A stretch of DNA of 64,000 nucleotides from an uncultured Brevinematales bacterium. Lineage in GTDB: Bacteria; Spirochaetota; Brevinematia; Brevinematales; JAOACQ01. Position 1 is the first letter of the stretch. Each line of letters starts with the position of its first letter. The notes under the pieces were generated by a model, which was given only the letters and a program-made list of their open reading frames with translations, did not search any database and was not told the DNA's origin. Positions 51,845-64,000 of the stretch are shown here, one piece after another. The stretch covers positions 8,822 to 72,821 of the forward strand of contig CAYPRX010000006.1 of assembly GCA_964413265.1 (NCBI GenBank). The letters run 5' to 3'. Made by a program: the position numbers and the translations under genes.

Positions 51845-52057
51845 CTCCGGCTCCTTTAAGGCGTCCCAATAACACAGGAAAAAAGGTTAGATATTATATT
51901 ACAAAACAATAAATTTCTCAAATAATGACAATTCAACAAATTATTCGATCTATGCGCCCCCATACAGTCAGGAAATGGCTTTGCTGATACTGTGTGTCAT
52001 GTAACTTTTATTCGTTGTCAGGAAATTGAGAATGAGGGGCCGACCTTACCACAATTT

Positions 52058-52447
52058 TCACATCCAAACTTCGCGGTACTTCATCACCTCGTTCAATTTT
52101 TCGCTGAAATAAAAGATGTATTCGTGGGGAGGGGTAGGAAGAGAAATAACGTCGAATACTTCACCGGGTGATAATAGCTTTTTGAAGTCACCGGGCGAAA
52201 TGTCCAGCTTGGGCACGCCGAGCAATCCGCCTCCATGCGCATAGGCGAGGTGGACGGTGTTGATTGAAAAATCAAAAGAATTGGTAATCCTTTTCCCATC
52301 AATGGTGTATTCAAAATCGATATTGAAAATCGTATGTTCCCCGTCTTTCGGGTCATCGCTGCACTGGCAGAATGTTATTGTCGCTTTTACTTTTTGACCT
52401 TCGGCCAGTATCTTGTTTTCAAGCTCCGCATTCGAGATATATATCAT
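52058..52447 (-). CDS. hypothetical protein
   Basis: 129-aa ORF in a locally GC-richer patch. I recognise no motif. Confidence 0.4.
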   Translation of the reverse strand: MIYISNAELENKILAEGQKVKATITFCQCSDDPKDGEHTIFNIDFEYTIDGKRITNSFDFSINTVHLAYAHGGGLLGVPKLDISPGDFKKLLSPGEVFDVISLPTPPHEYIFYFSEKLNEVMKYREVWM

Positions 52448-52771
52448 TATGGGCTCCCGTGTGATCCGGCATCCAAAATAACCCCCGTTCCGTCACTGAA
52501 ATTGACCCCTTGGCCGGATACTGATTATAGACTCATTGGATTTACCCGTCAAGAACAATCGACAATTTGGACATTGAGTGGTATCCAGACGCCCCACGTA
52601 TAAGCGCCCTCATGCGCCGCGTTTGATTTCAGTTTACTGAGTAACATCAACTGAGCCATCAAATGGGATTTTGGTAATTATAAAAATGTAGAGATAAGAA
52701 AACGGCTAAAAAGAAGAAATTTTATTTTTAAATAGAAAATCTTGTTTAGCATAATTCGTTATCCTTCAAAA

Positions 52772-53191
52772 TTAAAGGCTGATCTTAGCCCCGAGCTGAA
52801 CAAGCATTCCGTAATAATCAAACATCGCCCAGTGCTCGGCGATCTTTCCATTTTTGAAATAAACTATTCCGATCTCTGTAACAGAAACCTTTTTCCCTGT
52901 CGCAGGGATGCCGAAGATAGTATCAAGGTGGGTGCCTGTGTTCAGATGCCTGAAAACCAGCTTGTTGCCCGAGGTGAAACAGTCGAGAAGCTTTTCATGC
53001 CAGTCTGGAAACCCCTTATGAAAGAGAAGCACTCTATCCCTGACATTGTTAATGCCCATCAGGTCGCCTTCCGGAGTGTGTGCAACATAGTCCTCTGTGT
53101 AATACTTTACGATTAAATCTACCCTTCCATTATTCCATACCTCTTGTTGGGCCTCCTTAAGAATTTCGACAATGTTTGCCATATATCCCAC
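52772..53191 (-). CDS. SnoaL-like (NTF2-fold) ester/polyketide cyclase-family protein
   Basis: It shows the typical pattern VWNNG..DL...Y.EDYV.H...G...G......V..F...FPD........F..GNK...R....GTH...IFGIPATGK.V....I.I..F.NGKI.E.W. The likely true start is the ATG at 53182 (MANIVE...). Confidence 0.7.
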   Translation of the reverse strand: MGYMANIVEILKEAQQEVWNNGRVDLIVKYYTEDYVAHTPEGDLMGINNVRDRVLLFHKGFPDWHEKLLDCFTSGNKLVFRHLNTGTHLDTIFGIPATGKKVSVTEIGIVYFKNGKIAEHWAMFDYYGMLVQLGAKISL

Positions 53192-53410
53192 CTCTCTAAT
53201 ATTAAACAGGAGTTTCTCAGTTATCAGAGTGGCTTCTCAAAAAATTTGTCCGGCGGTCATGATTGCCTCCTGAATATAATTTTTGTGGAAAATTATTATA
53301 TTTCTTCAGAGGCAGTTTGACCACCTTTTTATTGGCCAACTGTCAGGTGAATACCATCAAATCATTATACAAATTTTGTTACCATGATAATAACTCCTGC
53401 AGGCAGACAA

Positions 53411-54610
53411 TTAAATTTTATTTTCTTTTATTTGTGATATGATATTCATCATTAATTCATTTATTTTATTATTATCAACAGCATTATTTTTGTTATTTAC
53501 TGTTGCCGATATTGTGTAAATATTATCCCCCTTATTTTTTTCTAAAATAAAAGTATATTGAAGAACCCCCGGTTCATATCCTCCTTTATAACCTGCAATA
53601 TACCAATCTTTTTTATTGATAAAAGCTCCTGAATTGATTTTAATTTCGTCAGAATCTTTTAACCCGTATATTAGATTACATAAATCTTTTGTCGAAAAAA
53701 ACCATTCTATTTTATCTATATCTGTCGGTTTGGAATTTATTTTTACATCAGAAATATCTTTATTATTAAATGTTTCCAGGATTTTTCTTTTTTCCTGAAT
53801 TTTACTTTTCATATATTCACTATAGATATTAATGTCTGAACTGAACTTTAGTATAAAAAAATCCTTAGTTTTAAGAAAAGGTTTATTAATATCTGATACA
53901 TTTTTTTCAATTTCTTCACGCCCTAAGTAATCAATTAATATATCAGCAGCAGTATTATCGCTTATAGATATCATTAAAGCTGCTAATGTTTTTAATGTTA
54001 ATGGAGTATTATCAGGCCAATCCTGTAATATTCCGGATTGAATAGATTTATTATTCTTTTTCAAAATAATTATATCATTCCAATTAATTTTTTTGTCAGT
54101 TATTTTTTTATATATTAATTTTAATATTAATAGTTTGAACGATGAACCAACTGCTAAAGGCTCATCTTCATTATATGATAATATTGAACTGTTATTATTT
54201 TTAAATATACTTAAAGAATTATTACCCGGGATTTTTTTAAACTCAGAAAGAATAGAATCTATTGTTAAATTAAATAGTATTATAGGACCAAACCATAATC
54301 CAATAATTTTATTGTTATCGTTTAAATAGATTTTTGACTGAATTGCACCTTTTTCAAAAATGATATTGTAAGAATCTGCTTCAATTATAACATTAGTTTG
54401 CTTTCCAAGAGACCTTTTATAAGAATTCAATATATCATAAGTTTTATCAATTGACACTTTTTCTTTAAAGGATAAGTCAAATAATTCCGCAATATCTTTT
54501 TTTTCAGAATTAAATAATTTTGTCAATAATTCAATTTTAAAGTCATGCTCCTGAGAAAATAATAAATTAAAATTTAAAATCAAAACCGAGAAAATTATTA
54601 TTTTTTTCAT
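53411..54610 (-). CDS. class-A beta-lactamase-fold serine hydrolase with extra N-terminal domain; very AT-rich gene
   Basis: 399 aa with a signal peptide. The motifs appear in class-A order and spacing: S-x-x-K (GSSFKL), S-D-N (SISDNTAADIL), and a K-T/S-G equivalent (YKGG). The SD GGGAGG lies 6 nt before the ATG. Sampled lines are about 20-25% G+C. Confidence 0.65.
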   Translation of the reverse strand: MKKIIIFSVLILNFNLLFSQEHDFKIELLTKLFNSEKKDIAELFDLSFKEKVSIDKTYDILNSYKRSLGKQTNVIIEADSYNIIFEKGAIQSKIYLNDNNKIIGLWFGPIILFNLTIDSILSEFKKIPGNNSLSIFKNNNSSILSYNEDEPLAVGSSFKLLILKLIYKKITDKKINWNDIIILKKNNKSIQSGILQDWPDNTPLTLKTLAALMISISDNTAADILIDYLGREEIEKNVSDINKPFLKTKDFFILKFSSDINIYSEYMKSKIQEKRKILETFNNKDISDVKINSKPTDIDKIEWFFSTKDLCNLIYGLKDSDEIKINSGAFINKKDWYIAGYKGGYEPGVLQYTFILEKNKGDNIYTISATVNNKNNAVDNNKINELMMNIISQIKENKI

Positions 54611-55063
54611 TTTTACCTCCCACAGTAAATTATATGATTTTGGGCAAAACGTATTCGCAATTTTCAGGTAGGGATTCTACTTTTTGAAGACGTTAAGTAA
54701 TATCTTCAATTTCAAATCTATCTAAATCCATAAATTCGACCTCCTTTTATAATAAAACAGAAGATTAACGTTATAATATATGTCATCCTATTATAATTTT
54801 ATTGGTACTTGTAAATATTATAAATCAGCCAATAGGATCTGTATATTTTTCAAGATAATCATTCAAAATTTTATGTGTCCACCAAGGCTTTTTAGCGACC
54901 CACCATATAAAATAGGATAGCCCGGTTCTTTTCAGAAGGTTAAGGAAGTTAGAGGAAGCATAATTGATACCCACCAGAGATTCCATCATCTACTTAAGTT
55001 ACTTTAATAAACAATGGGTGTGTGTTATAATAAGCGATCAGGCATGAGCCGGAGGTCTTCTGG

Positions 55064-55429
55064 ATGGACAGGATCGGCATTCTTCTTTACGGTTATAACA
55101 TGAATGACGCAAAAGGTCTACGCAGTATTATTGAGAAGGGATTGGGCAGAAAGATCATCCTCTTCAGCGCCTCGGGAATGGAGGATAAGAACCTCCAAGA
55201 AGTGCTGGATGCAGCCAATGTTTCCAGTTTCGAAGATTGCGAAACTAAAATATTGATTTTTCTGGGCTTTTTAGACGGAGACATGCAAAAAACCATGCAG
55301 ATGATTAGTGGCAAAGATATTACCAGACCTATATTCTGCACACTAACAGCCGAGAATATTCACTGGACCCTTAAAGTACTTATTGAGCATCTTTGCAAAG
55401 AAGCCCTTTACTGGGGAAAAAAGAAATAA
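55064..55429 (+). CDS. small conserved hypothetical protein (possibly DUF3783-like)
   Basis: 121 aa. The pattern ILLYGY...... and C-terminal RPIFCTLTAENIHWTLKVLIEHL resembles what I recall of DUF3783. This is unverified. Confidence 0.35.
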   Translation: MDRIGILLYGYNMNDAKGLRSIIEKGLGRKIILFSASGMEDKNLQEVLDAANVSSFEDCETKILIFLGFLDGDMQKTMQMISGKDITRPIFCTLTAENIHWTLKVLIEHLCKEALYWGKKK

Positions 55430-55470
55430 TCCCTCTGAATCCTATTCTCGATCCGGGGTAAAGAAGCGAC

Positions 55471-56190
55471 TTATAAAATTTTATATCCGGCATTCAGTGC
55501 GTCATTATAAAACATCCTGACAGTATCAAGCGAATATTCTTTAAGATCTTTTCCGACTATCGTCAATTTCTTCAAAATATCCGGCAAAACGGTTATAATA
55601 TGACACCCAGCCTCCTCGGCATGGAATATATTTAAAAGTTCCCTGGGGCTTGCCCAAAGCACTTCGGCGTTCGGATTCTTTCTGCATATTTCAACAGCTT
55701 TTTTCATAATGGGTACAGGATCGCGGCCGGTATCGGCTATTCTGCCCGCAAATACAGATATGATATTTTTGATCCCAGGATTTATGGCATTAATCACTTC
55801 TTCAACCTGTTCAAGCGGCATAATCGCAGTTATATTCAGAGACAGTCCCTCATCGTTCAATTTTTTGATCAGCGAAATTGAAGATTCGCCTTTTGTATTG
55901 GTTATAGGTATCTTGACGTAAACATTTTTCCCCCAGGCAGCTATCTTTTTTGCTTCAATTTCCATAGTTTTAAAATCATCGGCAAAGACCTCGAAAGAAA
56001 CGGGCAGGTCTTTTATTATGGACAGAACTTTCCTTGCAAATGCCTCATAATCCATAACTCCGGCCTGTCTCATAAGCGTCGGGTTTGTTGTAAAACCGCT
56101 GACCCATCCTTCTTTATAGGCTTTAAGCATATCGTCAATATTCGCTCCGTCCGCAAAGATCTTTATTTTTAAATCCGACAATTTAAACAT
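55471..56190 (-). CDS. transaldolase-family protein (short TalC/FSA type)
   Basis: 239 aa. Signatures: FADGAN, GFTTNPTLM, and the Schiff-base lysine context VYVKIPIT. It is the last gene of the heptose operon. Confidence 0.85.
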   Translation of the reverse strand: MFKLSDLKIKIFADGANIDDMLKAYKEGWVSGFTTNPTLMRQAGVMDYEAFARKVLSIIKDLPVSFEVFADDFKTMEIEAKKIAAWGKNVYVKIPITNTKGESSISLIKKLNDEGLSLNITAIMPLEQVEEVINAINPGIKNIISVFAGRIADTGRDPVPIMKKAVEICRKNPNAEVLWASPRELLNIFHAEEAGCHIITVLPDILKKLTIVGKDLKEYSLDTVRMFYNDALNAGYKIL

Positions 56191-56204
56191 AATTCTTACC
56201 TCAT

Positions 56205-56771
56205 TTAAGATTTAACTATCAATTTTACGGCATCCAGAAGATTGCCGGCATTAAAATCGGCAGCAGATGAAAATCCGGTATTTTCCTCACTCTTCACAAA
56301 GACCGTTCCCGTTCCTCCGTTTCTTCCGCATATTATATCAGCCTCCCTGTCCCCGATCATCCAGGATTTACCCATATCGATTGAATATAATTTTTCAGCT
56401 TTTTTAAGAAAAAATGGCTTCGGTTTCCTGCACTCGCATTCTCCTGAATATCCCGCAATAATACCAGCAGGATGATGGTAGCAATAATAATATTCCCTGA
56501 ATATTATCTTATTCTCTTTAAATATCCTGTCCAGTTTGTTGTGTACAGATATCAGGTCTTCAAGTCTGCATTTACCCTTGGCATAATCAGGCTGGTTCGA
56601 GACCAGAAACAGAGAAAAACCTCCTTCAAGAGCGATTTTCAGACTCTCCAGGGTCCATGGATAAAGATCCAGATCCTCCTCCCTGTGTGGTGGTTCGTAT
56701 ACCCCGGTGGTTTGATTTTTGACAAGCCTGTTTATTACTCCGTCCCTGTCAAGAAAAATAGCTTTATCCAT
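56205..56771 (-). CDS. gmhB: D,D-heptose 1,7-bisphosphate phosphatase (HAD-IIIA, GmhB)
   Basis: 188 aa. Signatures: IFLDRDGVIN, VSNQPDYAKG, CYHHP, CECRKPKP and IGDREAD. Confidence 0.8.
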   Translation of the reverse strand: MDKAIFLDRDGVINRLVKNQTTGVYEPPHREEDLDLYPWTLESLKIALEGGFSLFLVSNQPDYAKGKCRLEDLISVHNKLDRIFKENKIIFREYYYCYHHPAGIIAGYSGECECRKPKPFFLKKAEKLYSIDMGKSWMIGDREADIICGRNGGTGTVFVKSEENTGFSSAADFNAGNLLDAVKLIVKS

Positions 56772-57377
56772 CTATTTCACAGACTCCCATTTTCCCTGCG
56801 CGGCTTTTAATACAGGATGAGAAACAAGAAGGTGCCAGACCACTGCATGATAAGCCTCCGTCAGGGGTGTGACAGTATCAGGGCTTATTACAGGAATTAT
56901 CACAGCAGCATCGGCGGCCTTTGCCGTATAACCACCGTCACGGCCAACGAGTCCAATAATTTTTGCTCCCGTTTCTTTTGCATATTTCAAGGCTGACACA
57001 ATATTTACGCTTATGTTTTTTTCCTCGCTGCCGCCACCGACAGAAATGATGATTATACCGTCCCTTGAATTAAGCCGGCTTCCCATGAGCCAGTTGACAA
57101 AAACAGTTTCCCACCCGTCATCGTTAATCCTTGCAGTAAGCTCTGAAACGTTGTCAGTAGGCGTGTAAGACTCGATTCCGACCAGTTTCCTGAAATCGTT
57201 TACCGCATGACTGGCGTTTGCTGCACTTCCGCCTATGCCAAGAATAAAAAGCCTTCCACGGGATTCTTTTATCTCAAGAAGAATATTAACTGCCCTTTCA
57301 ATTGACTTTTTATCGATAGTTTCAGCGATCTTAACTACGCCGTCGAAATATGACTCGATATAAGTATTAACATCCAT
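56772..57377 (-). CDS. gmhA: SIS-domain sedoheptulose-7-phosphate isomerase (GmhA-like)
   Basis: 201 aa. Signatures: LGIGGSAANASHAVNDF, IIISVGGG and TPLTEAYHAVVWH. The stop abuts the gmhB start. The assignment is supported by context. Confidence 0.7.
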   Translation of the reverse strand: MDVNTYIESYFDGVVKIAETIDKKSIERAVNILLEIKESRGRLFILGIGGSAANASHAVNDFRKLVGIESYTPTDNVSELTARINDDGWETVFVNWLMGSRLNSRDGIIIISVGGGSEEKNISVNIVSALKYAKETGAKIIGLVGRDGGYTAKAADAAVIIPVISPDTVTPLTEAYHAVVWHLLVSHPVLKAAQGKWESVK

Positions 57378-57392
57378 TTATTTATCCTCATT

Positions 57393-58100
57393 CTAATTTT
57401 TATTATGCTTTAAAAGAAACTCTTTTGTTTCTTTTATTCCCTTGAAAGATCCGATTTCATAAAACCTTTCCAATACCTCAAAACCGATAAGCTCATTTTC
57501 AGATGCAAGCATGCTGTAAATGTCAGCTAGATCTGCCGTTTCATTTTCTTTAATCTGTTCAAAACAGATATTCCTGATAATCCCGAGGCCGTAGTCAATG
57601 TATTTCATTTCAGGATTCATGATTTTCTTATTATAATTTGTTACATATCCATTATCAAAAATAACGTTGCTCTTACCCCAATTGTTATTATTCTTCAATA
57701 CTGTCATTAATGCTTTTTTATTTTGTTTTACAAAGCACTCAGAAACCGAGCTGAAGTCAATCAATAAATACGAATCTCCATACATTACAAAAAAGACTTC
57801 AGGAAGTCCATTCAGGGCTTTTTTTATCGCACCGCCTGTTCCCAGCAGTTTGTCCCCGTCTGACGAATAGCGGACATTCAGGCCGAACATTTTTCCATCC
57901 CCTACATAATCACGTACCATCTCCCCCAGGAAACCGATACAGATAACCACATTTTTAATTCCATTTTTCTTCAGCAGTTCAAGCTGATGATGTATAAACG
58001 GCTTCCCGTTTATATCAATCATGGCCTTCGGTATTTTCCGAGTGACCGGATAAAGACGGGTTGCAAGGCCGCCGGCCAGAACTGCAATATCAGTTATCAT
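57393..58100 (-). CDS. sugar-1-phosphate nucleotidyltransferase (HddC-like)
   Basis: 235 aa. Signatures: VLAGGLATRLYPVT...PKAM, LLGTGGA and YGDSY. Confidence 0.75.
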   Translation of the reverse strand: MITDIAVLAGGLATRLYPVTRKIPKAMIDINGKPFIHHQLELLKKNGIKNVVICIGFLGEMVRDYVGDGKMFGLNVRYSSDGDKLLGTGGAIKKALNGLPEVFFVMYGDSYLLIDFSSVSECFVKQNKKALMTVLKNNNNWGKSNVIFDNGYVTNYNKKIMNPEMKYIDYGLGIIRNICFEQIKENETADLADIYSMLASENELIGFEVLERFYEIGSFKGIKETKEFLLKHNKN

Positions 58101-59080
58101 GACCCGGTTACTACCTTCGTCCCCTCGAAATCAAATCTAAAACGGATCTCCTCAAGCCCCTCATTCATTAATGTATGCCTCAGTCTGACTTTGTCTTTTG
58201 CATAAAACATCAGAAATCCTCCGCCTCCTGCTCCTATAAGTTTGCCTCCGACGGCCCCGCTTTTCAAGGCAAGATCATACCAGTCATTTATCTGAGGATT
58301 TGATATTGAGCCTGATCTTTTTTTCTTGCGTTCCCAATGAACATTCATTAATTCTCCGAATTTTATCAAATCACCGCTTTCAAGGGCCTTTTTATTTTTT
58401 AAACCAAGGTCCTTAATAAAATGCAGATTTTCAATCATATCCTGATCATTATCTTTGCTCTTGTCATTTTGTTCCTTCAGTATCAAGGAAGCGTTTCTTG
58501 TAAAACCTGTGAAAAAAAGGAGAAGATTGTCTTCAAGATCATACAATGCCTCCCTTTCGATTTTTAAGGGATATGATTTTACGCTTCCATCTCTGTTGAA
58601 CTCAAAACAGGTCAAACCGCCATAGGCCGAAATGTACTGGTCCTGCTTGCCGATAGGCTCTCCCAGCTTATTTATTTCAATGTCACATGCCTCTTCGGCA
58701 AGTTCTTTCGGATGAATGAAATCTCTTTTGTACATATGAAGCGCTTTCAATAAAGCTGTTGTGAAACTGCTCGAAGAACCGAGGCCGGTGCCTGATGGAA
58801 TATCTGCCATGCTTGTCAATTCCAGATAGTTATCCTTTAAACCCAGTAATTTCAATGATTCCCTGATTATGGGATGCTGTATTTCCGACACTTCCATCAC
58901 CTTTTCCATCAGTGAATATTTGATTATATACCCCGGCTGAAAGGTTTTATGAAGGGTAATATAAATATATTTGTCGATGGCAGCGGCGATAACGAAGCCG
59001 CCGTATTGTTCATAATAAGAGGCAAGGTCGGTCCCCCCTCCCCCCAGAGTTATTCTCAGCGGACTTCTCGTTATTATCAT
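58097..59080 (-). CDS. GHMP sugar kinase (HddA-like heptose-7-phosphate kinase)
   Basis: 327 aa. Signatures: TRSPLRITLGGGGTDL, PSGTGLGSSSS, GKQDQYISAYGG and GAGGGGF. Confidence 0.78.
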   Translation of the reverse strand: MIITRSPLRITLGGGGTDLASYYEQYGGFVIAAAIDKYIYITLHKTFQPGYIIKYSLMEKVMEVSEIQHPIIRESLKLLGLKDNYLELTSMADIPSGTGLGSSSSFTTALLKALHMYKRDFIHPKELAEEACDIEINKLGEPIGKQDQYISAYGGLTCFEFNRDGSVKSYPLKIEREALYDLEDNLLLFFTGFTRNASLILKEQNDKSKDNDQDMIENLHFIKDLGLKNKKALESGDLIKFGELMNVHWERKKKRSGSISNPQINDWYDLALKSGAVGGKLIGAGGGGFLMFYAKDKVRLRHTLMNEGLEEIRFRFDFEGTKVVTGS

Positions 59081-60073
59081 TTAAATTCTCCCATAGATTT
59101 TATCGACAATTTTCAGAGCCTGGTATGCATCATTCAAACTGCCGTTTAACGGCTTATTTTTTTCTATCGATTCTACGAAATCTCTAAACTCGAGTTCCCA
59201 TGAAAAGTCTTCACCCGGATATTCCCATACAGTTGTTTCAGGAGGGCCCATTTCAGGAAGCATTTTATAAAATGAGAGCTTTTCAACTCCGTAGCTTCCT
59301 CCCAGCCCGTCAATCTGGAGCTTCCCGTATTTACCATACACCTCAAGGCAGAACATATTTTTCCATTCCGTACAGCTGACCTGAAGCCAGGAAACCCTGC
59401 TTCTGCTGTTTTTCAGGTAAATAAAAGCATTGTCATCAGCGTCCATATTCCAGAAATATGTCGCCGTGATACCATCAACTTTTTCAAAATCCCCCAAAAA
59501 AAATCGCGATAAATCAATGAGGTGGATACCCTGGTCTATCAGTTCTCCTCCCCCGGAAATTTCAGGTTTTGCCCTCCATTCCTTATCATAGCCGATCCTC
59601 CCGCCATGACCGTATCTCCCGCGGATAAACATTAATTCCCCGATACCCTGAGAATCAGCAATACTTTTAGCCTTTAAAATGGCGGGATGATAACGCAGAT
59701 TAAATCCGACTTTTACCTTCTTTCCCGATTCAAGGCTTTTCCTGTAGAAGGGCTCTAATTCAACTGAATTCCTTGCCCCCGGTTTTTCAATCAGAACGTG
59801 TTTATCATGAGACAGCGCATATAATCCAATGGGGGTTAAATAATCATTCGATGTCGATACAATGACAATATCGACCCCGGGGTGATCTGCCGCTTTTTCC
59901 CAATTTTCTGCAATAAGGGCATTCTGACTGTTTATTTGACTTACTGTCTTTGCCCTTTCCATGTTTTTATCAGAAACAATTAAGAGTTTATGATTGCCGA
60001 GGGACCTTGCCCTTTTTTCTCCAATCAAACCGCAGCCTATTATAGCTACATTCATCCAAAAGACCTCATTCAA
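59081..60073 (-). CDS. Gfo/Idh/MocA-family NAD(P)-dependent oxidoreductase
   Basis: 330 aa. It has the N-terminal Rossmann motif VAIIGCGLIGEKR, plus LIEKP and a C-terminal alpha/beta domain. Confidence 0.8.
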   Translation of the reverse strand: MNEVFWMNVAIIGCGLIGEKRARSLGNHKLLIVSDKNMERAKTVSQINSQNALIAENWEKAADHPGVDIVIVSTSNDYLTPIGLYALSHDKHVLIEKPGARNSVELEPFYRKSLESGKKVKVGFNLRYHPAILKAKSIADSQGIGELMFIRGRYGHGGRIGYDKEWRAKPEISGGGELIDQGIHLIDLSRFFLGDFEKVDGITATYFWNMDADDNAFIYLKNSRSRVSWLQVSCTEWKNMFCLEVYGKYGKLQIDGLGGSYGVEKLSFYKMLPEMGPPETTVWEYPGEDFSWELEFRDFVESIEKNKPLNGSLNDAYQALKIVDKIYGRI

Positions 60074-60903
60074 ATCAATTTAATTCTTCTCAACTTTCCT
60101 GCATCGCTGTAAACGGCACTTGTATGTACGTCAGCAAATTTTTTATATTCATCCCTGAAATGAATCAGCCTTCCGCTGATCCCCTTATTCATTTCTCTAT
60201 TACATAAAAATTCAACCAGCCTTATGATATCTCCAGGTTCTGTCCCGCCGCTTCCCATTGTCTCAAACGCCTCTTCATAGGCTTTATCTCCAGACTTTTC
60301 TTTTGAACTCAGCACTTCCTCCGTCATCCTTGTTTTAACAGCACCCGGTGCTACCGCATTGATGATTATTTCTCCATGATCGTTCGATTTCAGCTCATCA
60401 GCTATCGTCTCTACAAGTCTTAAAACCCCTGTTTTTGAAACGCCGTAAGAGGAAAAGTTCGGGCGTGAATTGCATGAACCCCCTCCGGAAAATAGTATTA
60501 TCGAACCGGATATTCTCTCCTTAATTAAAATCTCAATAGCAGTTTTTGAAATGTTAAAGCTTCCAGTCAGATTTACTTTAATAACTTCTTCAAAATCATC
60601 CTGGGACAATGTCCATGCCGGCCCTAAAACTCCCTGTATCCCGGCGGTGCTGATAATAAAAGAAGGATATGATCCGTAAATTTTATAATGTTTTTCAAAC
60701 CCTTTTTTAACTTCTTTTATACTCCCCACGTTCCCTGACAGAATATTTACGTACATCCCCCTTTTTTCAACTTCATCCCTTAATGATTCCAGATTATTTT
60801 TTGTCCTTGCAAATACAGTAACCTTGCATCCTTTTTCCAGAAAATAAACAGCTATGATTTTGCCTATTCCAAGACTGCCGCCGAATACAATTACCGATTC
60901 CAA
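60070..60903 (-). CDS. short-chain dehydrogenase/reductase (classical SDR)
   Basis: 277 aa. Signatures: VFGGSLGIGK, NAVAPG-type region, the catalytic YGVSK, and an upstream Ser (SGGGS). Confidence 0.8.
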   Translation of the reverse strand: MESVIVFGGSLGIGKIIAVYFLEKGCKVTVFARTKNNLESLRDEVEKRGMYVNILSGNVGSIKEVKKGFEKHYKIYGSYPSFIISTAGIQGVLGPAWTLSQDDFEEVIKVNLTGSFNISKTAIEILIKERISGSIILFSGGGSCNSRPNFSSYGVSKTGVLRLVETIADELKSNDHGEIIINAVAPGAVKTRMTEEVLSSKEKSGDKAYEEAFETMGSGGTEPGDIIRLVEFLCNREMNKGISGRLIHFRDEYKKFADVHTSAVYSDAGKLRRIKLI

Positions 60904-60907
60904 TTCT

Positions 60908-61861
60908 CTATCTCCTCTTCAAGACCCATTCGTTTTCCTTCAAATATTCCAGGGTTTTTATGACCGCACTTTTTATTGTTAATTCAGGTTTCCAGCCCAG
61001 TTTATTAATTTTTGAACAATCCAGAAAGATGAAGGGGTTATCCCCTATCCAGCCCCGATCACCACCTGAATAACTTATTTCCGGCTTCAGGCCGAGATTT
61101 TCAACGATCCAGCCTATTGAATCGTTTACCTCGCAGTATTCATTCGTCCCGAGATTAAAAATATTGACTCTCTCGGATGACTTTTCCAATGCGAATAAAA
61201 TTGCATTAATGCAGTCTTGAATATATAAATAAGACTTCTTCTGATGACCGTTTCCCAGCACCCTCAACTCGTCTGGATTATGAAGGAGCATCTTATAAAA
61301 ATCAAAAATGTGACCGTGCGTGTACCTCTCACCAAGAATGGAAACAAACCTGAAAATCCAGCACTGAAAGCCGAAGCCCTCGCAATAAGCCTGAATTAAA
61401 GATTCCCCTCCCAGTTTTGAAGCACCGTAGATGGAGGTCTGGACTGGAAAGGGCGCATCCTCAGGGGTTGGAATGTTTATTGATTCCCCGTAAATTGAAC
61501 CAGTCGAGGAAAAAACGATTTTTTTAATTTTATTTTTTCTCATTGCCTCCAGAACATTAAAAGTCGCTATAATATTCTGATTGAGATCCTTTTGCGGATT
61601 CTCGGTCCCGAATCTGACATCTGCATTGGCTGCAAAATGTATTACAATATCACAACCGCGCATTGCTCCTGCAAGAGTTTCATTGTCCAGCAAATCGCCC
61701 TTTACCAGCCTGAAGTTTTCAGCTTTTTTCGCCTTAAATAAAAATTCTTCAATACCCGTTGAAAAATTATCATACACAATTACCTGCTCATTATTGTCAA
61801 GGAGCCTGTCTGTAATATTGCTCCCTATAAAACCGGCTCCCCCCGTTACAAAATACCTCAT
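60908..61861 (-). CDS. NAD-dependent nucleotide-sugar epimerase/dehydratase (extended SDR)
   Basis: 317 aa. Signatures: VTGGAGFIGSN, SSTGSIYG and YGASKLGGE. Confidence 0.85.
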   Translation of the reverse strand: MRYFVTGGAGFIGSNITDRLLDNNEQVIVYDNFSTGIEEFLFKAKKAENFRLVKGDLLDNETLAGAMRGCDIVIHFAANADVRFGTENPQKDLNQNIIATFNVLEAMRKNKIKKIVFSSTGSIYGESINIPTPEDAPFPVQTSIYGASKLGGESLIQAYCEGFGFQCWIFRFVSILGERYTHGHIFDFYKMLLHNPDELRVLGNGHQKKSYLYIQDCINAILFALEKSSERVNIFNLGTNEYCEVNDSIGWIVENLGLKPEISYSGGDRGWIGDNPFIFLDCSKINKLGWKPELTIKSAVIKTLEYLKENEWVLKRR

Positions 61862-62304
61862 TTCCTCTCCATAATTTTCAAATTAAAGATAATTTTATTC
61901 ATAACAAAGAATGTCAGCACCATCGTTATGACTGTCGCCGCGGCGACCCCGAAATAAATACTGATTTTAAACAGAAGAAGCAGGTTCACCACTCCAAGAT
62001 TAATCAGGTAATTTATGAATGAAAGAATCAAATATTGTACTATCTGATATTTAAGCCTCGAAAATTTTTTTTCCTGGAAAACAAACATTTTATTTAACGA
62101 GAAATGATATATCAACGCTGCAAAGTAGGAAATTGAAACAGACAGGTTATGAGTAAGTTTTAAGATATCATTTGTTAAATAAATGAAAGAAAAATTTACT
62201 ATTGCAGTCGTTCCTCCGATCAACAAAAATTTCATTACCTTATGAATTTCCGTTTTATTATTAAGTTGCTTGCGGAGAAACAAAAATAATTTCCTTGCTG
62301 GCAT
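61858..62304 (-). CDS. GtrA-family small membrane protein (putative lipid-linked sugar translocation)
   Basis: 148 aa with 4 TM helices and KFLLIGGTTAIVNFSFIYL, as in the GtrA-like family. Confidence 0.72.
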   Translation of the reverse strand: MPARKLFLFLRKQLNNKTEIHKVMKFLLIGGTTAIVNFSFIYLTNDILKLTHNLSVSISYFAALIYHFSLNKMFVFQEKKFSRLKYQIVQYLILSFINYLINLGVVNLLLLFKISIYFGVAAATVITMVLTFFVMNKIIFNLKIMERK

Positions 62305-62307
62305 AAA

Positions 62308-63267
62308 TTACTTTTTATTATGTATTATTTTAAAACCGTGCGCTTCCTGCACGATAAAAATAGGTCTTCCCTTGACTTCATCAAACATCCTTGCAAGGTA
62401 CTGGCCGATAATCCCCAGGCTTAACAGCTGAATCCCGCTGTAAAAAGAAATTAAAATAACAAGGGTCGGATTGCCCCAGGGAATTTTGATATGCATCAGG
62501 CTGAATGCTATATAAATTATACCCAATAAAAAACTGAATAGTGCAACAATTAAACCGGAGATTGATATCAAATCCAGAGGGTACTTTGAAAAGCTCAGGA
62601 TCCCGTTCAATCCGATTTTAAGAGAGCCGAAAAAGCGGTTATATTTGCCCCTGCCGCAGAATCTGGAATCTCTCTCATATAAAATGCCTGTTTGGTTATA
62701 GCCTACATAGCCGACCAGACCCCTTAAAAAGGCGTCATTTTCTTTTAATAATTTCAAATTATCAATCACCTCCCTGCTGATCAACCGAAAGTCCCCCGTA
62801 TTTCTTGGAATATGTACCTCTGAGATTTTATTGATAATCCTATAACCCAGGAAGGCCACTATTTTTTTTATTATCGTTTCACCCTTCCTGTTCTTCCGCT
62901 GGGCATATACTACATGATAACCCTCTTTCCACTTCATTATCATCTCTTTGATCAATTCAGGCGGGTCCTGAAGGTCTGCGTCAATCACAACACAGATATC
63001 GCCGGTACAGTAGTAAATCCCGGCTAATGTACAGGAGGGCTGGCCGAAACGGCGGGACATTTTCAGCAATTTAATATTTATATCCCTTTTCCTGAAATTT
63101 AATATTATTTTTTCAGTATTATCCCTGCAGGGGTCCATAGAAAATATTATTTCATATTTACATTTTATGGCAGACACGACTTTTTTAAGCCTGGCCAGAA
63201 GTGGAGGTATATTTTTTTCTTCATTGTAAACAGGAATAACTATGGAAAGTTTAAAGCTGTTACTCAT
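62308..63267 (-). CDS. family-2 glycosyltransferase of the polyprenyl-phosphate sugar synthase type (GtrB/ArnC/DPM1-like)
   Basis: 319 aa. Signatures: LSIVIPVYNEE, SMDPCRDNT, VIDADLQDPPE and two C-terminal TM helices. Confidence 0.85.
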   Translation of the reverse strand: MSNSFKLSIVIPVYNEEKNIPPLLARLKKVVSAIKCKYEIIFSMDPCRDNTEKIILNFRKRDINIKLLKMSRRFGQPSCTLAGIYYCTGDICVVIDADLQDPPELIKEMIMKWKEGYHVVYAQRKNRKGETIIKKIVAFLGYRIINKISEVHIPRNTGDFRLISREVIDNLKLLKENDAFLRGLVGYVGYNQTGILYERDSRFCGRGKYNRFFGSLKIGLNGILSFSKYPLDLISISGLIVALFSFLLGIIYIAFSLMHIKIPWGNPTLVILISFYSGIQLLSLGIIGQYLARMFDEVKGRPIFIVQEAHGFKIIHNKK

Positions 63268-63297
63268 CCCATACTTCTCATACTATCAAATATTATC

Positions 63298-63311
63298 TCT
63301 TATCGATAAGA
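63298..63311. repeat. perfect 14-bp palindrome TCTTATCGATAAGA (possible operator; function unknown)
   Basis: Read directly. It lies 31 nt upstream (minus-strand sense) of the GT2 start, in the only sizeable gap of the operon. Confidence 0.6.
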
Positions 63312-63398
63312 ATGAACACTAAGTAAAGGTATTTTATAATAAATGCCGTGTTTTGACAACATTTCGGTGCCGAAAACGGCGCTTTAAAAAAATAATGG

Positions 63399-64000
63399 TC
63401 AAAGCTTTTGATCACCCCGGAGGAGTTTTTCAACACAGTAGCAGTCAAGGTCGAAGAGGCCTCTTTTCTTGATATCAATGAAAGAGTTACTTCCGTCGTC
63501 AACCTGACTGAACACTGCTTCCCCTGAAGCACCTTTTGAAACGATTATATTTGATGTAAAACTCAATTTTATGAAGGGACTGCTCAGCTGGTTGAAAACA
63601 ATTGTACCTTTGCCGCCCGGTGAGAGCATTATATGAACTGAGCCGAAATCACGTATTGAGGAGAAAAGGTCCGGATCGCTCGATGATATTACAGACAGAC
63701 CACTGTTTTCGAGAATGGATGCGTTATCTTTTTTTTTAAAATCAAGGGGCATGTATTCATCCCAATTAAAGTGAGACCTGAGGTTTTCGTTGGACATACT
63801 TTCAGCAATTTCACGGCTGCTGAAGCTCTTATACCTGTAAAACTCGTAATTTCCGCCGACCCATACTGCCTGAATAAAGAGTATTAAACCCAGCCCAAAC
63901 CTAACTGCTTTTTCACCGTTTATCCTGGTGAAAAGCATAGTGGCAGAATCAGCATAATAGATGAATAAAATTATAGCCAGCGGAGTGATGAGGCATAACA
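63399..64000 (-). CDS. C-terminal part of a large polytopic membrane protein with ~140-aa extracytoplasmic tail (possible GT-C-type transferase); 5' end outside the window
   Basis: The reading frame stays open upstream of the track Met through position 64000 (...LCLITPLAIILFIYYADSATMLFTR...). It contains hydrophobic helices followed by a soluble C-terminal domain. The family is not recognisable from this fragment. Confidence 0.45.
   Translation of the reverse strand, partial: LCLITPLAIILFIYYADSATMLFTRINGEKAVRFGLGLILFIQAVWVGGNYEFYRYKSFSSREIAESMSNENLRSHFNWDEYMPLDFKKKDNASILENSGLSVISSSDPDLFSSIRDFGSVHIMLSPGGKGTIVFNQLSSPFIKLSFTSNIIVSKGASGEAVFSQVDDGSNSFIDIKKRGLFDLDCYCVEKLLRGDQKL

Follow-up and report, generated by a model that had tools for sequence, protein, structure and literature searches.

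Gene content and organization of the locus

The window analyzed here, a stretch of DNA of 64,000 nt from a bacterium that is probably related to spirochetes, contains ten complete, co-directional minus-strand open reading frames (ORFs) within 55471–63267, identified by ORF analysis, and an eleventh minus-strand ORF (63399–64000) that runs open to the window end. The minus-strand order is a partial GT-C gene, a GtrB-like GT2, GtrA, a GalE-like SDR, a classical SDR and a Gfo/Idh/MocA oxidoreductase, followed by an HddA-like GHMP kinase, an NTP-transferase, a GmhA-like SIS protein, a GmhB-like HAD-IIIA protein and a short transaldolase. The features are as follows.

63399..64000, minus: GT-C-fold membrane glycosyltransferase, 3' part (last 199 codons and stop), frame open to the window end
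63331..63359, minus: candidate promoter, TTGTCA-17 nt-TAAAAT, upstream of the GT2 gene, 10/12 consensus match
63298..63311, no strand: perfect 14-bp palindrome TCTTATCGATAAGA (exact match), between the promoter-like site and the GT2 start codon
62308..63267, minus: GtrB/ArnC-type polyprenyl-phosphate glycosyltransferase (GT2), 319 aa, PF00535 (98 bits)
61858..62304, minus: GtrA-family small membrane protein, 148 aa, PF04138 (53.8 bits, cut-off 26.1)
60908..61861, minus: extended-SDR NDP-sugar epimerase, GalE-like, 317 aa, PF01370 (168.6 bits)
60070..60903, minus: classical SDR oxidoreductase, FabG-like, 277 aa, PF00106 (122.9 bits)
59081..60073, minus: Gfo/Idh/MocA NAD(P) oxidoreductase, 330 aa (324 aa from ATG 60055), PF01408, PF02894, PF22725
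58097..59080, minus: GHMP anomeric sugar kinase, HddA-like, 327 aa, PF00288, PF08544
57393..58100, minus: sugar-1-phosphate nucleotidyltransferase, 235 aa, PF00483
56772..57377, minus: SIS-domain aldose-ketose isomerase, distantly GmhA-like, 201 aa, PF13580
56205..56771, minus: HAD-IIIA sugar-bisphosphate phosphatase, GmhB-like, 188 aa, TIGR01656 and TIGR01662 passed
55471..56190, minus: short transaldolase, last operon gene, 239 aa, TIGR02134 (351.2 bits, cut-off 281.95)

Spacings across 55471–63267 are 14, 0, 15, −4, 0, −4, 4, −4 and 3 nt (the −4 overlap of the Gfo/Idh/MocA and SDR genes becomes +14 if the former starts at the alternative ATG 60055), and 131 nt (63268–63398) separate the GT2 start from the GT-C ORF. 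A sequence-only reading of this DNA had already described the co-direction, the tight spacing and this gap, its gene order holds, and Pfam confirmed every one of its family calls. That reading had counted an 11-gene operon, of which the ten packed genes stand and the membership of the GT-C gene is the less likely part. The TTGTCA and TAAAAT blocks are kept upstream of the GT2 gene in two relatives (L009 and L011), and this site is the probable start of a ten-gene transcription unit. No terminator-like site was seen 3' of the GT-C gene, so read-through into the operon is possible; a unit of ten genes, from GT2 to transaldolase, is nevertheless more likely than one of eleven, because relatives share the promoter-like site within the gap and do not all carry the GT-C gene next to the block. 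The ten-gene block is intact in two related genomes, with protein identities of 60 to 87%. The palindrome, also noted earlier and present as described, is one of seven perfect 14-bp palindromes in the whole window; it is not conserved in L009 and L011 and is therefore probably a functionless chance occurrence. The gap (63268–63398) matched no Rfam family.

The operon had also been called AT-rich. Its G+C content from GT2 to transaldolase is 39.8%, compared with 42.6% for window positions 1–51844 and a mean of 41.9% (sd 1.6%) for eight-kb windows; individual genes range from 37 to 45%, except gtrA, the lowest at 30.9%. We rejected a foreign-island reading built on AT-richness, as the operon itself lacks such a composition. 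The stretch that is truly AT-rich is its neighbor at 51845–55470 (34.3% G+C), which lies outside the operon.

Core enzymes and the case for a heptose

The core had been read as a self-sufficient NDP-heptose pathway. To a route leading to GDP-D-glycero-alpha-D-manno-heptose, with the transaldolase only supplementing sedoheptulose-7-P and a redox-tailored heptose carried on the lipid, we give slightly less than an even chance. The PDB matches of the isomerase are phosphoheptose isomerases in all but one case (best E value 6e-12); the best matches of the kinase are the heptose-phosphate kinase 3K85, WcbL and C. jejuni HddA (E values 7.5e-53 to 1.8e-41), and its family is annotated as heptose-7-phosphate kinase by JGI. 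For three of the four core enzymes the best NCBIfam models belong to the heptose pathway, those of the phosphatase being GmhB after generic HAD-IIIA models. Heptoses are, moreover, common in bacterial glycans, and aldo-octoses very rare.

However, all four enzymes lie far under the curated NCBIfam cut-offs: the kinase for HddA (182 versus 600 bits), the isomerase for GmhA (TIGR00441, 56 versus 209), the phosphatase for GmhB (95.5 versus 178, 94 versus 149.6 and 73.5 versus 250) and the nucleotidyltransferase for HddC (97 versus 300; its best model is MurU, 112 versus 250). What the pathway claim had captured is thus nearest-family resemblance. In the isomerase alignment the catalytic Glu is replaced by Asp, the His is retained, and ∼4 to 6 extra residues lengthen the loop that aligns with ISTSG. 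The PDB matches of the nucleotidyltransferase (MurU 4Y7T and Yersinia HddC 6JQ8) cover its N-terminal half only. The phosphatase exceeds the cut-offs of TIGR01656 (104.3 versus 84.15 bits) and TIGR01662 (74.7 versus 44.6), and its translation holds a DxDGV motif and a CxH...CxC loop.

The transaldolase weighs on the same side. Sedoheptulose-7-P is a standard pentose phosphate intermediate for which a dedicated gene is unneeded, yet 53 of 87 loci have a transaldolase gene close to the block, and at three loci a match of only 27 to 29% identity, apparently a different transaldolase type, occupies the same position. No mention of a transaldolase in heptose gene clusters was found in the heptose-cluster literature searched, and the two papers in which the word did occur deal with other subjects.

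Tailoring enzymes

The epimerase best matches A. fulgidus GalE-1 in the PDB (3EHE, E value 5e-91) and is 58 to 72% identical to relatives in other phyla; its translation contains SSTGSIYG and YGASK motifs and lacks the Asp-Glu pair that 4,6-dehydratases carry. The classical SDR, a probable ketoreductase, hits only generic NCBIfam models, all under cut-off, and in other phyla a classical SDR sits at the same position with merely 26 to 41% identity. The nearest solved relatives of the Gfo/Idh/MocA protein, which is 46 to 64% identical to relatives in other phyla, are a putative dehydrogenase (6A3F) and DgpA (7XR9), and its best NCBIfam model is levoglucosan dehydrogenase. Campylobacter and Yersinia tailor heptoses with dehydratase, cupin-epimerase and reductase families; the tailoring enzymes of the window belong to other families, which counts against a heptose.

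An octose as a possible alternative cargo

The lmb/ccb sugar genes of lincosamide biosynthesis comprise nine enzyme types, namely transaldolase, isomerase, kinase, phosphatase and nucleotidyltransferase together with epimerase, dehydrogenase, NAD(P) oxidoreductase and aminotransferase (PMC12945683 Table 1; PMC4351081 Table 2). LmbR and LmbN form the C8 backbone from ribose-5-P and a C3 unit taken from fructose-6-P or sedoheptulose-7-P (PMC7014725). The claim that the transaldolase just supplies sedoheptulose-7-P overlooks this sole characterized precedent for the very same set of enzymes, in which a C8 sugar is built by the transaldolase (PMC7014725, PMC12945683). We consider it plausible, though somewhat short of an even bet, that the block is homologous to the lincosamide GDP-octose pathway and places an eight-carbon sugar on the lipid carrier. 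In such a scheme, an LmbR-like transaldolase might form octulose-8-P from ribose-5-P and a C3 unit; equivalents of LmbN (isomerase), LmbP (kinase), LmbK (phosphatase) and LmbO (nucleotidyltransferase) might carry this to NDP-octose; and an LmbM-like epimerase and an LmbZ-like Gfo/Idh/MocA enzyme might tailor it. We hold each of these parts with that same reserve.

Seven of the nine enzyme types occur in the window, a likeness of enzyme type, and orthology to Lmb/Ccb is putative; the operon lacks an LmbL-like dehydrogenase and an aminotransferase, both present in lmb/ccb. Related loci go some way to supply them: 21 have a gene of the UDP-glucose/GDP-mannose-dehydrogenase family, to which we take LmbL to belong, between the epimerase and SDR genes, and four have a DegT aminotransferase nearby. 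Alignment of the transaldolase to the T. acidophilum and T. maritima enzymes shows that the Asp, TTNP, Glu, Schiff-base Lys and Phe are kept, and it is therefore of the transaldolase type rather than the fructose-6-phosphate aldolase type. This, like the position of all four core enzymes outside the heptose equivalog models, favors an octose. Against it, the transaldolase falls in TIGR02134, presumably defined on stand-alone Staphylococcus and Coxiella enzymes thought to serve the pentose phosphate pathway, and the enzyme families concerned are common. To our knowledge no bacterial envelope glycan contains a linear aldo-octose, although the block is found in at least 583 species.

A conserved transaldolase within the operon, together with tailoring by epimerase and Gfo/Idh/MocA enzymes, mirrors the lincosamide GDP-octose pathway, so that we consider either a heptose or an octose as the possible cargo: the chances are about even for a heptose, rather less for a lincosamide-type octose, and small for something else.

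Delivery module and the upstream GT-C protein

The GT2 translation contains the DADLQDPPE motif and two C-terminal TM segments, as had been read from the sequence. With NCBIfam models it reaches 234 bits for PgfS and 149 bits for ArnC, each under cut-off. Its alignments with Synechocystis GtrB (5EKP, E value 2.5e-81), ArnC (7e-37) and DPMS (9e-15) extend over the whole protein and take in the TM pair, which bears out the polyprenyl-phosphate GT2 assignment. The GtrA-like protein, likewise upheld by its Pfam match, is a putative flippase for the lipid-linked sugar.

The partial upstream gene had been described as a hydrophobic multi-TM protein. The window holds only its two terminal TM segments and a β-rich soluble C-terminal domain of ∼150 aa, the multi-TM body lying beyond 64000. 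The full-length protein of 567 aa, encoded at L001:1495-3198 on a contig 99.84% identical to the window, has no Pfam match and no PDB sequence match. In its AF2 model (pLDDT 89.7, pTM 0.91) it has a predicted GT-C fold: Foldseek ranks 1 to 35 are GT-C enzymes only (PglB, STT3, EmbA/B/C, ArnT, AftA/D, ALG3 and DPY19), so that the outcome named by the sequence-only reading as refuting it, an upstream protein that is no GT-C transferase, did not arise. Distant homologs carry PF10131, PF09586 or PF13231, and 15 of 22 homologs retain the acidic residue of a WPxNH[D/E] loop that follows TM1.

By its neighborhoods, the GT-C gene is judged a variable neighbor and not a fixed operon member. It is unlikely, in our view, that this enzyme is not the partner of the operon at all, its adjacency being a local rearrangement and the lipid-linked sugar either used by another GT-C enzyme encoded elsewhere or itself the end product. 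Such a reading would fit the closest complete relative, in which the GT-C homolog (60% identity) lies ∼32 kb from the ten-gene block, a 44% identical homolog and three distant ones with no block nearby, the TraG/TrwB-like gene remnants found with the GT-C gene in L001 and in L006, and the operon's own conserved promoter-like site. Yet the GT-C gene is co-oriented with the operon and just 131 nt away, and profile matches to the same family are immediate neighbors of the block in three other phyla (252 bits in L013, 254 in L017 and 96 in L049) and lie 2.7 kb upstream of it in a second Brevinematales genome (L011). Other GT-C types also adjoin the block: YfhO in L021 and, as a weak match under the Pfam cut-off, PMT_2 in L091.

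Distribution of the sugar block

Kinases of the block are 63 to 87% identical in the loci compared, with relatives in many phyla (71–87% in the protein search, 63–76% in fetched genomes). GT2 orthologs and/or GtrA stand beside the block in Planctomycetota, Omnitrophota, Verrucomicrobiota, Nitrospirota and Pseudomonadota MAGs; one locus (L044) reads GT2-methyltransferase-GtrA-epimerase-dehydrogenase-SDR-Gfo-kinase-NTP-SIS-HAD-transaldolase. Many block loci are ordinary polysaccharide loci with GT4, GT2, priming transferase and DegT genes, so that cytoplasmic transferases can also draw on the sugar nucleotide. That this is its use in the window, with GT2 and GtrA merely co-located and working on a common donor such as UDP-glucose, the donor of GtrB enzymes (PMC11127046), is improbable. 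In its favor, no more than 12 of the 83 loci with the block carry GtrB or GtrA in the DNA fetched (GtrA homologs, 12 of 83), and the closest solved GT2 relative is the Synechocystis GtrB homolog. Against it, the ten-gene operon of three Brevinematales genomes includes no other glycosyltransferase, its GT2 and GtrA genes adjoin the sugar genes tightly (a 3-nt gap and a 4-nt overlap), and a GT2 ortholog at a constant 52 to 55% identity adjoins the block in distant phyla.

Proposed pathway

As the probable reading we favor a three-component system for glycosylation outside the cytoplasm, coupled to a dedicated pathway that makes an unusual higher-carbon sugar. The transaldolase would form a ketose phosphate, either sedoheptulose-7-P from erythrose-4-P or, as for LmbR, octulose-8-P from ribose-5-P, which the SIS isomerase would convert to an aldose phosphate. 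The GHMP kinase would then phosphorylate C1, the HAD-IIIA phosphatase would strip the distal phosphate, and the nucleotidyltransferase would yield an NDP-sugar, whose stereochemistry the GalE-like epimerase, the Gfo/Idh/MocA enzyme and the classical SDR may alter by oxidation and reduction. At the inner face of the membrane the GtrB-like GT2 would load the sugar on undecaprenyl phosphate, GtrA would aid passage of the lipid-linked sugar across, and at the outer face the 567-aa GT-C enzyme may transfer it to an envelope acceptor.

The proposal draws on fold or family assignments for each protein, on a promoter-like site that is conserved in two relatives, and on a gene set kept together from genome to genome. 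No Gtr/Arn-type system with a heptose cargo was found described in the literature searched, in agreement with the sequence-only reading. The operon is a real, uncharacterized variant of the three-component periplasmic glycosylation system, in which the delivery route is well known and the cargo sugar is so far uncharacterized; it seems to produce a rare sugar of seven or eight carbons, attach it to a lipid carrier and decorate the cell surface from outside the cytoplasm.

A conserved ten-gene unit and its movable neighbour

Ten complete open reading frames run along the minus strand from 63267 to 55471, and an eleventh (63399-64000) is open at the end of the window. Intergenic spacing ranges from -4 to +15 nt, except that 131 nt separate the GT2 gene from the partial gene. 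Pfam bore out, gene by gene, the families that a sequence-only reading had given the ten complete genes, with matches across the operon to TAL_FSA, HAD-like, SIS_2, NTP_transferase, GHMP kinase N and C, Gfo/Idh/MocA, adh_short, Epimerase, GtrA_DPMS_TM and Glycos_transf_2. For the Gfo/Idh/MocA gene two start codons come into question: a TTG at 60073 gives 330 aa and a 4-nt overlap with the SDR stop codon, and an ATG at 60055, the choice of public gene calls, gives 324 aa and a 14-nt gap.

The same ten genes, in the same order and followed by the same glutamate-synthase genes, are present in two related genomes at 60-87% protein identity. The eleventh gene, assigned below to the GT-C enzymes, is adjacent in the window; its homologue lies 2.7 kb upstream in one Brevinematales relative (L011) and about 32 kb away in L006/L009. 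The 11-gene operon of the sequence-only reading therefore contracts to a conserved unit of ten genes, with the GT-C gene as a frequent but movable neighbour.

That reading had also described the operon as AT-rich. Its G+C content is 39.8%, against 42.6% for positions 1-51844 of the window (standard deviation 1.6% over 8-kb windows), and only gtrA (30.9%) and an adjacent segment outside the operon are AT-rich. An AT-rich foreign island is thus rejected for the operon. The segment concerned, 51845-55470, spans 3.6 kb at 34.3% G+C between the transaldolase gene and the GXGXG/glutamate-synthase genes, and was probably the source of the AT-rich impression.

Features within 51845-55470
53411-54610, minus strand: class-A beta-lactamase-like gene
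52772-53191, minus strand: SnoaL-like gene
55064-55429, plus strand: DUF3783 gene

This segment looks like a strain-specific insertion, because the GXGXG/glutamate-synthase genes directly follow the transaldolase gene in the two related genomes.

The 131-nt gap holds a promoter-like site (TTGTCA, 17 nt, TAAAAT), both hexamers of which also precede GT2 in the two relatives; the palindrome in the same gap is not conserved there. The latter, a perfect 14-bp palindrome (TCTTATCGATAAGA at 63298-63311), is real, as first described, but we rejected a role for it as an operator: it is one of seven perfect 14-bp palindromes in the window, and the site is not conserved in the relatives L009 and L011. 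Another of the seven occupies 55472-55485, a single base in from the 3' end of the transaldolase reading frame. We likewise rejected a riboswitch or small RNA in the gap, which gave no match to Rfam; one sub-threshold match lay elsewhere.

GT2, GtrA and a GT-C membrane enzyme as a predicted delivery module

Three-component glycosylation is a general route by which bacteria modify LPS, teichoic acids, capsules and proteins once these have been exported. The GT2 protein belongs to PF00535 (98 bits); DADLQDPPE can be read in its translation, as can two hydrophobic segments towards the C-terminus. These two TM helices fall within the stretch (residues 4-314) that aligns with the Synechocystis GtrB homologue 5EKP (E 2.5e-81); ArnC (E 7e-37) and dolichol-phosphate mannose synthase (9e-15) also align. 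This full-length agreement with GtrB, ArnC and dolichol-phosphate mannose synthase argues that the enzyme is a polyprenyl-phosphate glycosyltransferase, as the sequence-only reading had supposed, and not a transferase acting on a growing glycan. The GtrA protein matches PF04138 over all of its 117 model positions (1-117; 53.8 bits against a cut-off of 26.1) and is a flippase candidate. In all three Brevinematales genomes the GT2 and GtrA genes occur as a pair.

A search for exact copies of the GT2 protein led to five metagenomic contigs. One of these, L001, shares 99.84% identity with the window across 11.7 kb and reaches 2.6 kb further. It supplied the complete upstream protein, of 567 aa. 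Classification of this membrane protein by sequence failed: it had no Pfam match at E values up to 10 and no PDB sequence match, either as a single sequence or as a 22-sequence profile, and the assignment came only from structure prediction and Foldseek. An AlphaFold (AF2) model built from an alignment of the only 22 homologues found (pLDDT 89.7, pTM 0.91) shows about a dozen apparently membrane-spanning helices and a C-terminal beta-rich domain. Ranks 1-35 of a Foldseek search against the PDB were all GT-C enzymes (PglB, STT3, EmbA/B/C, ArnT, AftA, AftD, ALG3 and DPY19), with query-normalised TM-scores of 0.27-0.47. A WPxNH[D/E] motif follows the first helix, the position at which GT-C enzymes carry the catalytic acid, and its acidic residue is kept in 15 of the 22 homologues. 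Distant homologues did reach Pfam models, six of them PF10131, two PF09586 (YfhO) and one PF13231 (PMT_2), which are GT-C families. Because of the modelled fold, the Foldseek ranking and the acidic residue, the expectation that the truncated gene would prove to encode a GT-C transferase survived, with membership indicated by predicted fold and not by a sequence model.

Profile matches of this GT-C family lie directly beside the sugar block, the gene set from epimerase to transaldolase, in a Planctomycetales locus (L013, 252 bits), an Omnitrophota locus (L017, 254 bits) and a Pseudomonadota locus (L049, 96 bits). Elsewhere the block adjoins a YfhO-type protein or another protein with a weak PMT_2 match below the Pfam cut-off. 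No block was found beside the GT-C homologues in L008 or L093-L095, and we rejected a general linkage of distant family members to the block, since those in L093-L095 are not linked.

Beyond the window end, upstream of the GT-C gene, L001 carries a C-terminal fragment of a TraG/TrwB coupling protein (L001:62-478), and in a relative the GT-C homologue has a 340-aa TraG-like gene (L006:14660-15682) 3 kb downstream. The GT-C gene seems to be accompanied by a mobile-element remnant, which may be the cause of its variable position. Immediately preceding the GT-C gene, and in the same orientation, L001:427-1395 encodes a multi-TM protein of 306-322 aa that has no Pfam match; a counterpart was not seen in the other loci.

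Enzymes of the sugar block

The sequence-only reading had assigned the kinase, isomerase, phosphatase and nucleotidyltransferase to an NDP-heptose pathway. The solved relatives nearest to the kinase are heptose kinases (E 7.5e-53 to 1.8e-41), namely the heptose-phosphate kinase 3K85, WcbL and C. jejuni HddA, but it scored 182.3 bits against a cut-off of 600 for the HddA equivalog (NF049969). It is nearer to 150 representatives (41-67% identity, at least 259 bits), all uncharacterised, than to the heptose kinases of the PDB. All named PDB matches of the isomerase are GmhA; its score was 56.2 bits against 209.45 for the GmhA equivalog TIGR00441, and 43-50 against 265-320 for other GmhA models. 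In this protein Asp stands opposite the catalytic Glu of GmhA, the catalytic His is retained, and the loop at ISVGGGSEEKNIS is longer, by an insertion, than the ISTSG to which it aligns.

The phosphatase fell below three GmhB models (95.5 against 178 for NF006506, 94 against 149.6 for TIGR00213 and 73.5 against 250 for NF050049) and passed only generic HAD-IIIA and histidinol-phosphatase-domain models. The nucleotidyltransferase reached 97.1 bits against 300 for the GTP-specific HddC equivalog (NF049965), with MurU scoring higher at 112 against 250; its PDB matches, MurU and Yersinia HddC, cover the N-terminal half only. The nearest solved relatives of the kinase and the isomerase are thus of heptose type, but all four core enzymes lie far below the curated equivalog cut-offs (182/600, 56/209, 95/178 and 97/300).

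The last gene of the operon fared differently from these four. Its product passes TIGR02134 (351.2 bits, cut-off 281.95) and, aligned to 3S0C and 1VPX, keeps the catalytic Asp, Glu and Lys with Phe in place of Tyr; on family score and active-site residues it is predicted to be a true transaldolase. The GalE-like enzyme has an epimerase motif, not a dehydratase motif, and the best family and structure matches of the Gfo enzyme are sugar and inositol dehydrogenases.

We propose that the transaldolase would make or supply a ketose phosphate, which would be isomerised, phosphorylated at C1 and relieved of the phosphate on its distal carbon, and then activated to an NDP-sugar. This NDP-sugar would be epimerised through oxidation and reduction. 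The GT2 would move the sugar onto undecaprenyl phosphate, GtrA would assist its flipping across the membrane, and the GT-C enzyme would attach it to an acceptor.

Distribution of the sugar block

The kinase has more than 8,000 relatives; identity is 71-87% among the 120 matches listed, and the closest named relative among them (86%) comes from a Brevinematales MAG. From this relative and the synteny shared with L009 and L011, the host is probably a member of that spirochaete order, an assignment made with moderate confidence. The kinase family also includes a protein named from Candidatus Methylopumilus universalis. With one genome scanned per species, the kinase was present in at least 583 species, and tblastn was applied to the best 80 loci together with seven fetched earlier (87 in all). 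The set of epimerase, SDR, Gfo, kinase, NTP-transferase, SIS, HAD and transaldolase genes recurs in roughly 50 of the 87, in Verrucomicrobiota, Planctomycetota, Acidobacteriota, Elusimicrobiota, Omnitrophota, Nitrospirota, Chloroflexota and Pseudomonadota, including Coxiellaceae. An extra gene of the UDP-glucose/GDP-mannose-dehydrogenase family, absent from the window, lies between epimerase and SDR in 21 loci, and DegT occurs in four related loci.

Orthologues of GtrB (52-55% identity) are present in 12 of 83 loci, as is GtrA; in a Gammaproteobacteria MAG the order GT2-methyltransferase-GtrA is followed by the entire block. Other loci with the block are polysaccharide loci of the ordinary kind, which hold GT4, GT2, a priming transferase and DegT. 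With GtrB and GtrA each in 12 of 83 loci, this GT-C family beside the block in some, and others of ordinary polysaccharide type, the gene neighbourhoods indicate that the sugar block is a general supply module, coupled to a three-component system repeatedly but in a minority of loci.

Several loci vary the arrangement. A fused methyltransferase-GT2 protein is encoded at L075:4814-6478 (Coxiellaceae MAG, 554 aa), between the kinase and GtrA/transaldolase genes, and at L095:17503-19032 (509 aa), near a distant GT-C family member. Radical-SAM genes are inserted between the GT2 and epimerase genes at L017:1708-6309 (Omnitrophota MAG) and L013:5694-7238, the latter also with a B12-binding domain and the former with a second SDR and an AICARFT/IMPCHase-like gene; these insertions suggest further tailoring of the sugar, for example C-methylation. 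Between the kinase and its relatives, identity is 63-76% for at least eight other phyla and as much as 87% within the lineage. For a gene of a surface sugar this level is unusually high, and no other block gene equals it. Strong constraint or recent wide horizontal spread could be the cause.

Comparison with known systems

In Gtr systems a sugar is loaded on undecaprenyl phosphate, flipped and transferred in the periplasm (PMC11127046). By comparison of its parts, the architecture here would be that of the three-component systems described by Whitfield and colleagues (PMC11127046), and the dedicated sugar pathway most resembles Arn. The classical three-component systems, those for O-antigen glucosylation in Shigella and Salmonella, share a GT2 with a TM pair, a GtrA-family protein and a transferase of GT-C fold. 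They draw on the housekeeping donor UDP-glucose and contain no sugar-synthesis genes, whereas eight sugar-pathway genes share the operon here; the GT-C enzyme also belongs to a different sequence family without a Pfam match, is a variable neighbour, and the gene order differs.

The Arn pathway (Ugd, ArnA, ArnB, ArnC, ArnD, ArnE/F and ArnT), which modifies lipid A with L-Ara4N, is the best-known case of dedicated nucleotide-sugar tailoring encoded with a polyprenyl-phosphate GT2 and a GT-C enzyme. The GT2 resembles ArnC, the GT-C model resembles ArnT (Foldseek ranks 18-19), and related loci carry a Ugd-family dehydrogenase adjoining the extended SDR. However, the proposed starting point is a ketose phosphate rather than UDP-glucose, no aminotransferase, formyltransferase or deformylase is encoded in the operon, and the flippase candidate is GtrA, not ArnE/F.

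CsbB/GtcA/YfhO of Firmicutes teichoic acids comprises the same three parts, and the GT-C family is connected by sequence to PF09586 (YfhO) and PF10131 proteins, although the GT-C enzyme of this genome itself reaches no Pfam model. There GlcNAc or glucose comes from housekeeping pools; the host here is probably a diderm spirochaete relative. Three-component systems for pentofuranoses, with a polyprenyl-phosphoribose synthase, a flippase and a GT-C enzyme (Kelly et al. 2024, PMC11127046), likewise adapt the scheme to an unusual cargo with dedicated epimerases alongside. Their lipid-linked sugar derives from PRPP through a different transferase family, and epimerisation is proposed to occur on the lipid-linked sugar, unlike the nucleotide-sugar route and GtrB-type GT2 proposed here.

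The GDP-D-glycero-alpha-D-manno-heptose pathway (GmhA, HddA, GmhB and HddC; Aneurinibacillus, Campylobacter, Burkholderia WcbL, Yersinia) uses the same four enzyme families. It differs in that our proteins lie below its equivalog cut-offs, the isomerase has Asp for Glu with a longer neighbouring loop, a transaldolase is included in the operon, the tailoring enzymes are of other families, and the product is proposed to pass to a polyprenyl-phosphate GT2, not to cytoplasmic transferases. Among described systems, we know of none with this cargo pathway or this GT-C family, for which Pfam has no dedicated model.

Heptose or octose

Which sugar is carried is a choice mainly between a heptose and an octose. 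The solved relatives of the kinase, isomerase and nucleotidyltransferase point to the GDP-heptose pathway, and we put the chance of a heptose at about even. This reading is weakened by the missed cut-offs, the Asp and longer loop of the isomerase, the transaldolase within the operon and the lincosamide precedent. Sedoheptulose-7-P needs no dedicated gene for its supply; a transaldolase gene nevertheless lies near the block in 53 of the 87 loci, and in three loci a transaldolase-family match of only 27-29% identity occupies the same position. The heptose gene-cluster literature that we found does not mention a transaldolase, the two papers containing the word not being heptose-cluster papers, and a search for heptose with GtrA, GT-C or transaldolase returned nothing relevant.

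The alternative is an octose, which we regard as a serious contender at somewhat below even chances; any other sugar would be a surprise. In mass, an NDP-octose exceeds its NDP-heptose counterpart by 30 Da. In Streptomyces lincolnensis the GDP-octose pathway of lincosamides (LmbR, N, P, K, O, M, L, Z and S) begins with the addition by LmbR of a C3 unit to ribose-5-P, after which LmbN, P, K and O lead to GDP-octose and LmbM (epimerase), LmbL (dehydrogenase) and LmbZ (NAD(P) oxidoreductase) tailor it (PMC7014725, PMC12945683, PMC4351081). The cluster encodes a transaldolase together with a SIS isomerase, GHMP kinase, HAD phosphatase, nucleotidyltransferase, GalE-like epimerase and NAD(P) oxidoreductase (PMC12945683, PMC4351081). 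By family, the window holds seven of the nine enzyme types, among them, at the level of enzyme family only, all of the LmbR/N/P/K/O types with their cluster-encoded transaldolase (for the Lmb functions, PMC12945683 and PMC4351081). Missing from the operon are a dehydrogenase of LmbL type and an aminotransferase like LmbS; a classical SDR is present in addition. As part of actinobacterial secondary metabolism, the Lmb pathway supplies an antibiotic rather than a lipid carrier. To our knowledge, no other characterised pathway has the full Lmb-like set including a cluster-encoded transaldolase.

The octose reading is an argument from gene content. A literature search for GDP-octose outside lincosamides found none. 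Neither the high-G+C-like relatives among the 150 representatives nor the most actinobacterial-looking one led to a Streptomyces or Lmb entry, a result that reflects lacking reference sequences and is not evidence against an octose. In its widest form, which we offer tentatively and think less likely than not, the five-enzyme block would make an NDP-octose as LmbR/N/P/K/O do, and the octose would be a widespread, unnoticed envelope aldose of Verrucomicrobiota, Planctomycetota, Acidobacteriota, Omnitrophota, Elusimicrobiota, some Pseudomonadota (including Coxiellaceae) and Brevinematales; here it would be carried as Und-P-octose through GtrB, GtrA and GT-C, and the lincomycin sugar pathway would have been recruited from this block.

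The cargoes of characterised three-component systems known to us are hexoses, amino or uronic sugars and pentofuranoses. If the cargo here is a seven- or eight-carbon sugar with its own pathway from ketose phosphate to NDP-sugar, that list would be extended. The sugar block reaches well beyond one genome, with its kinase in at least 583 species and the compared kinases 63-87% identical across many phyla; its members are all uncharacterised and are currently annotated as a GDP-heptose pathway. Should the transaldolase assemble the carbon chain in the manner of LmbR, an octose would be present in the envelopes of these bacteria, and, were the octose reading true, the origin of the lincomycin sugar pathway would be explained.
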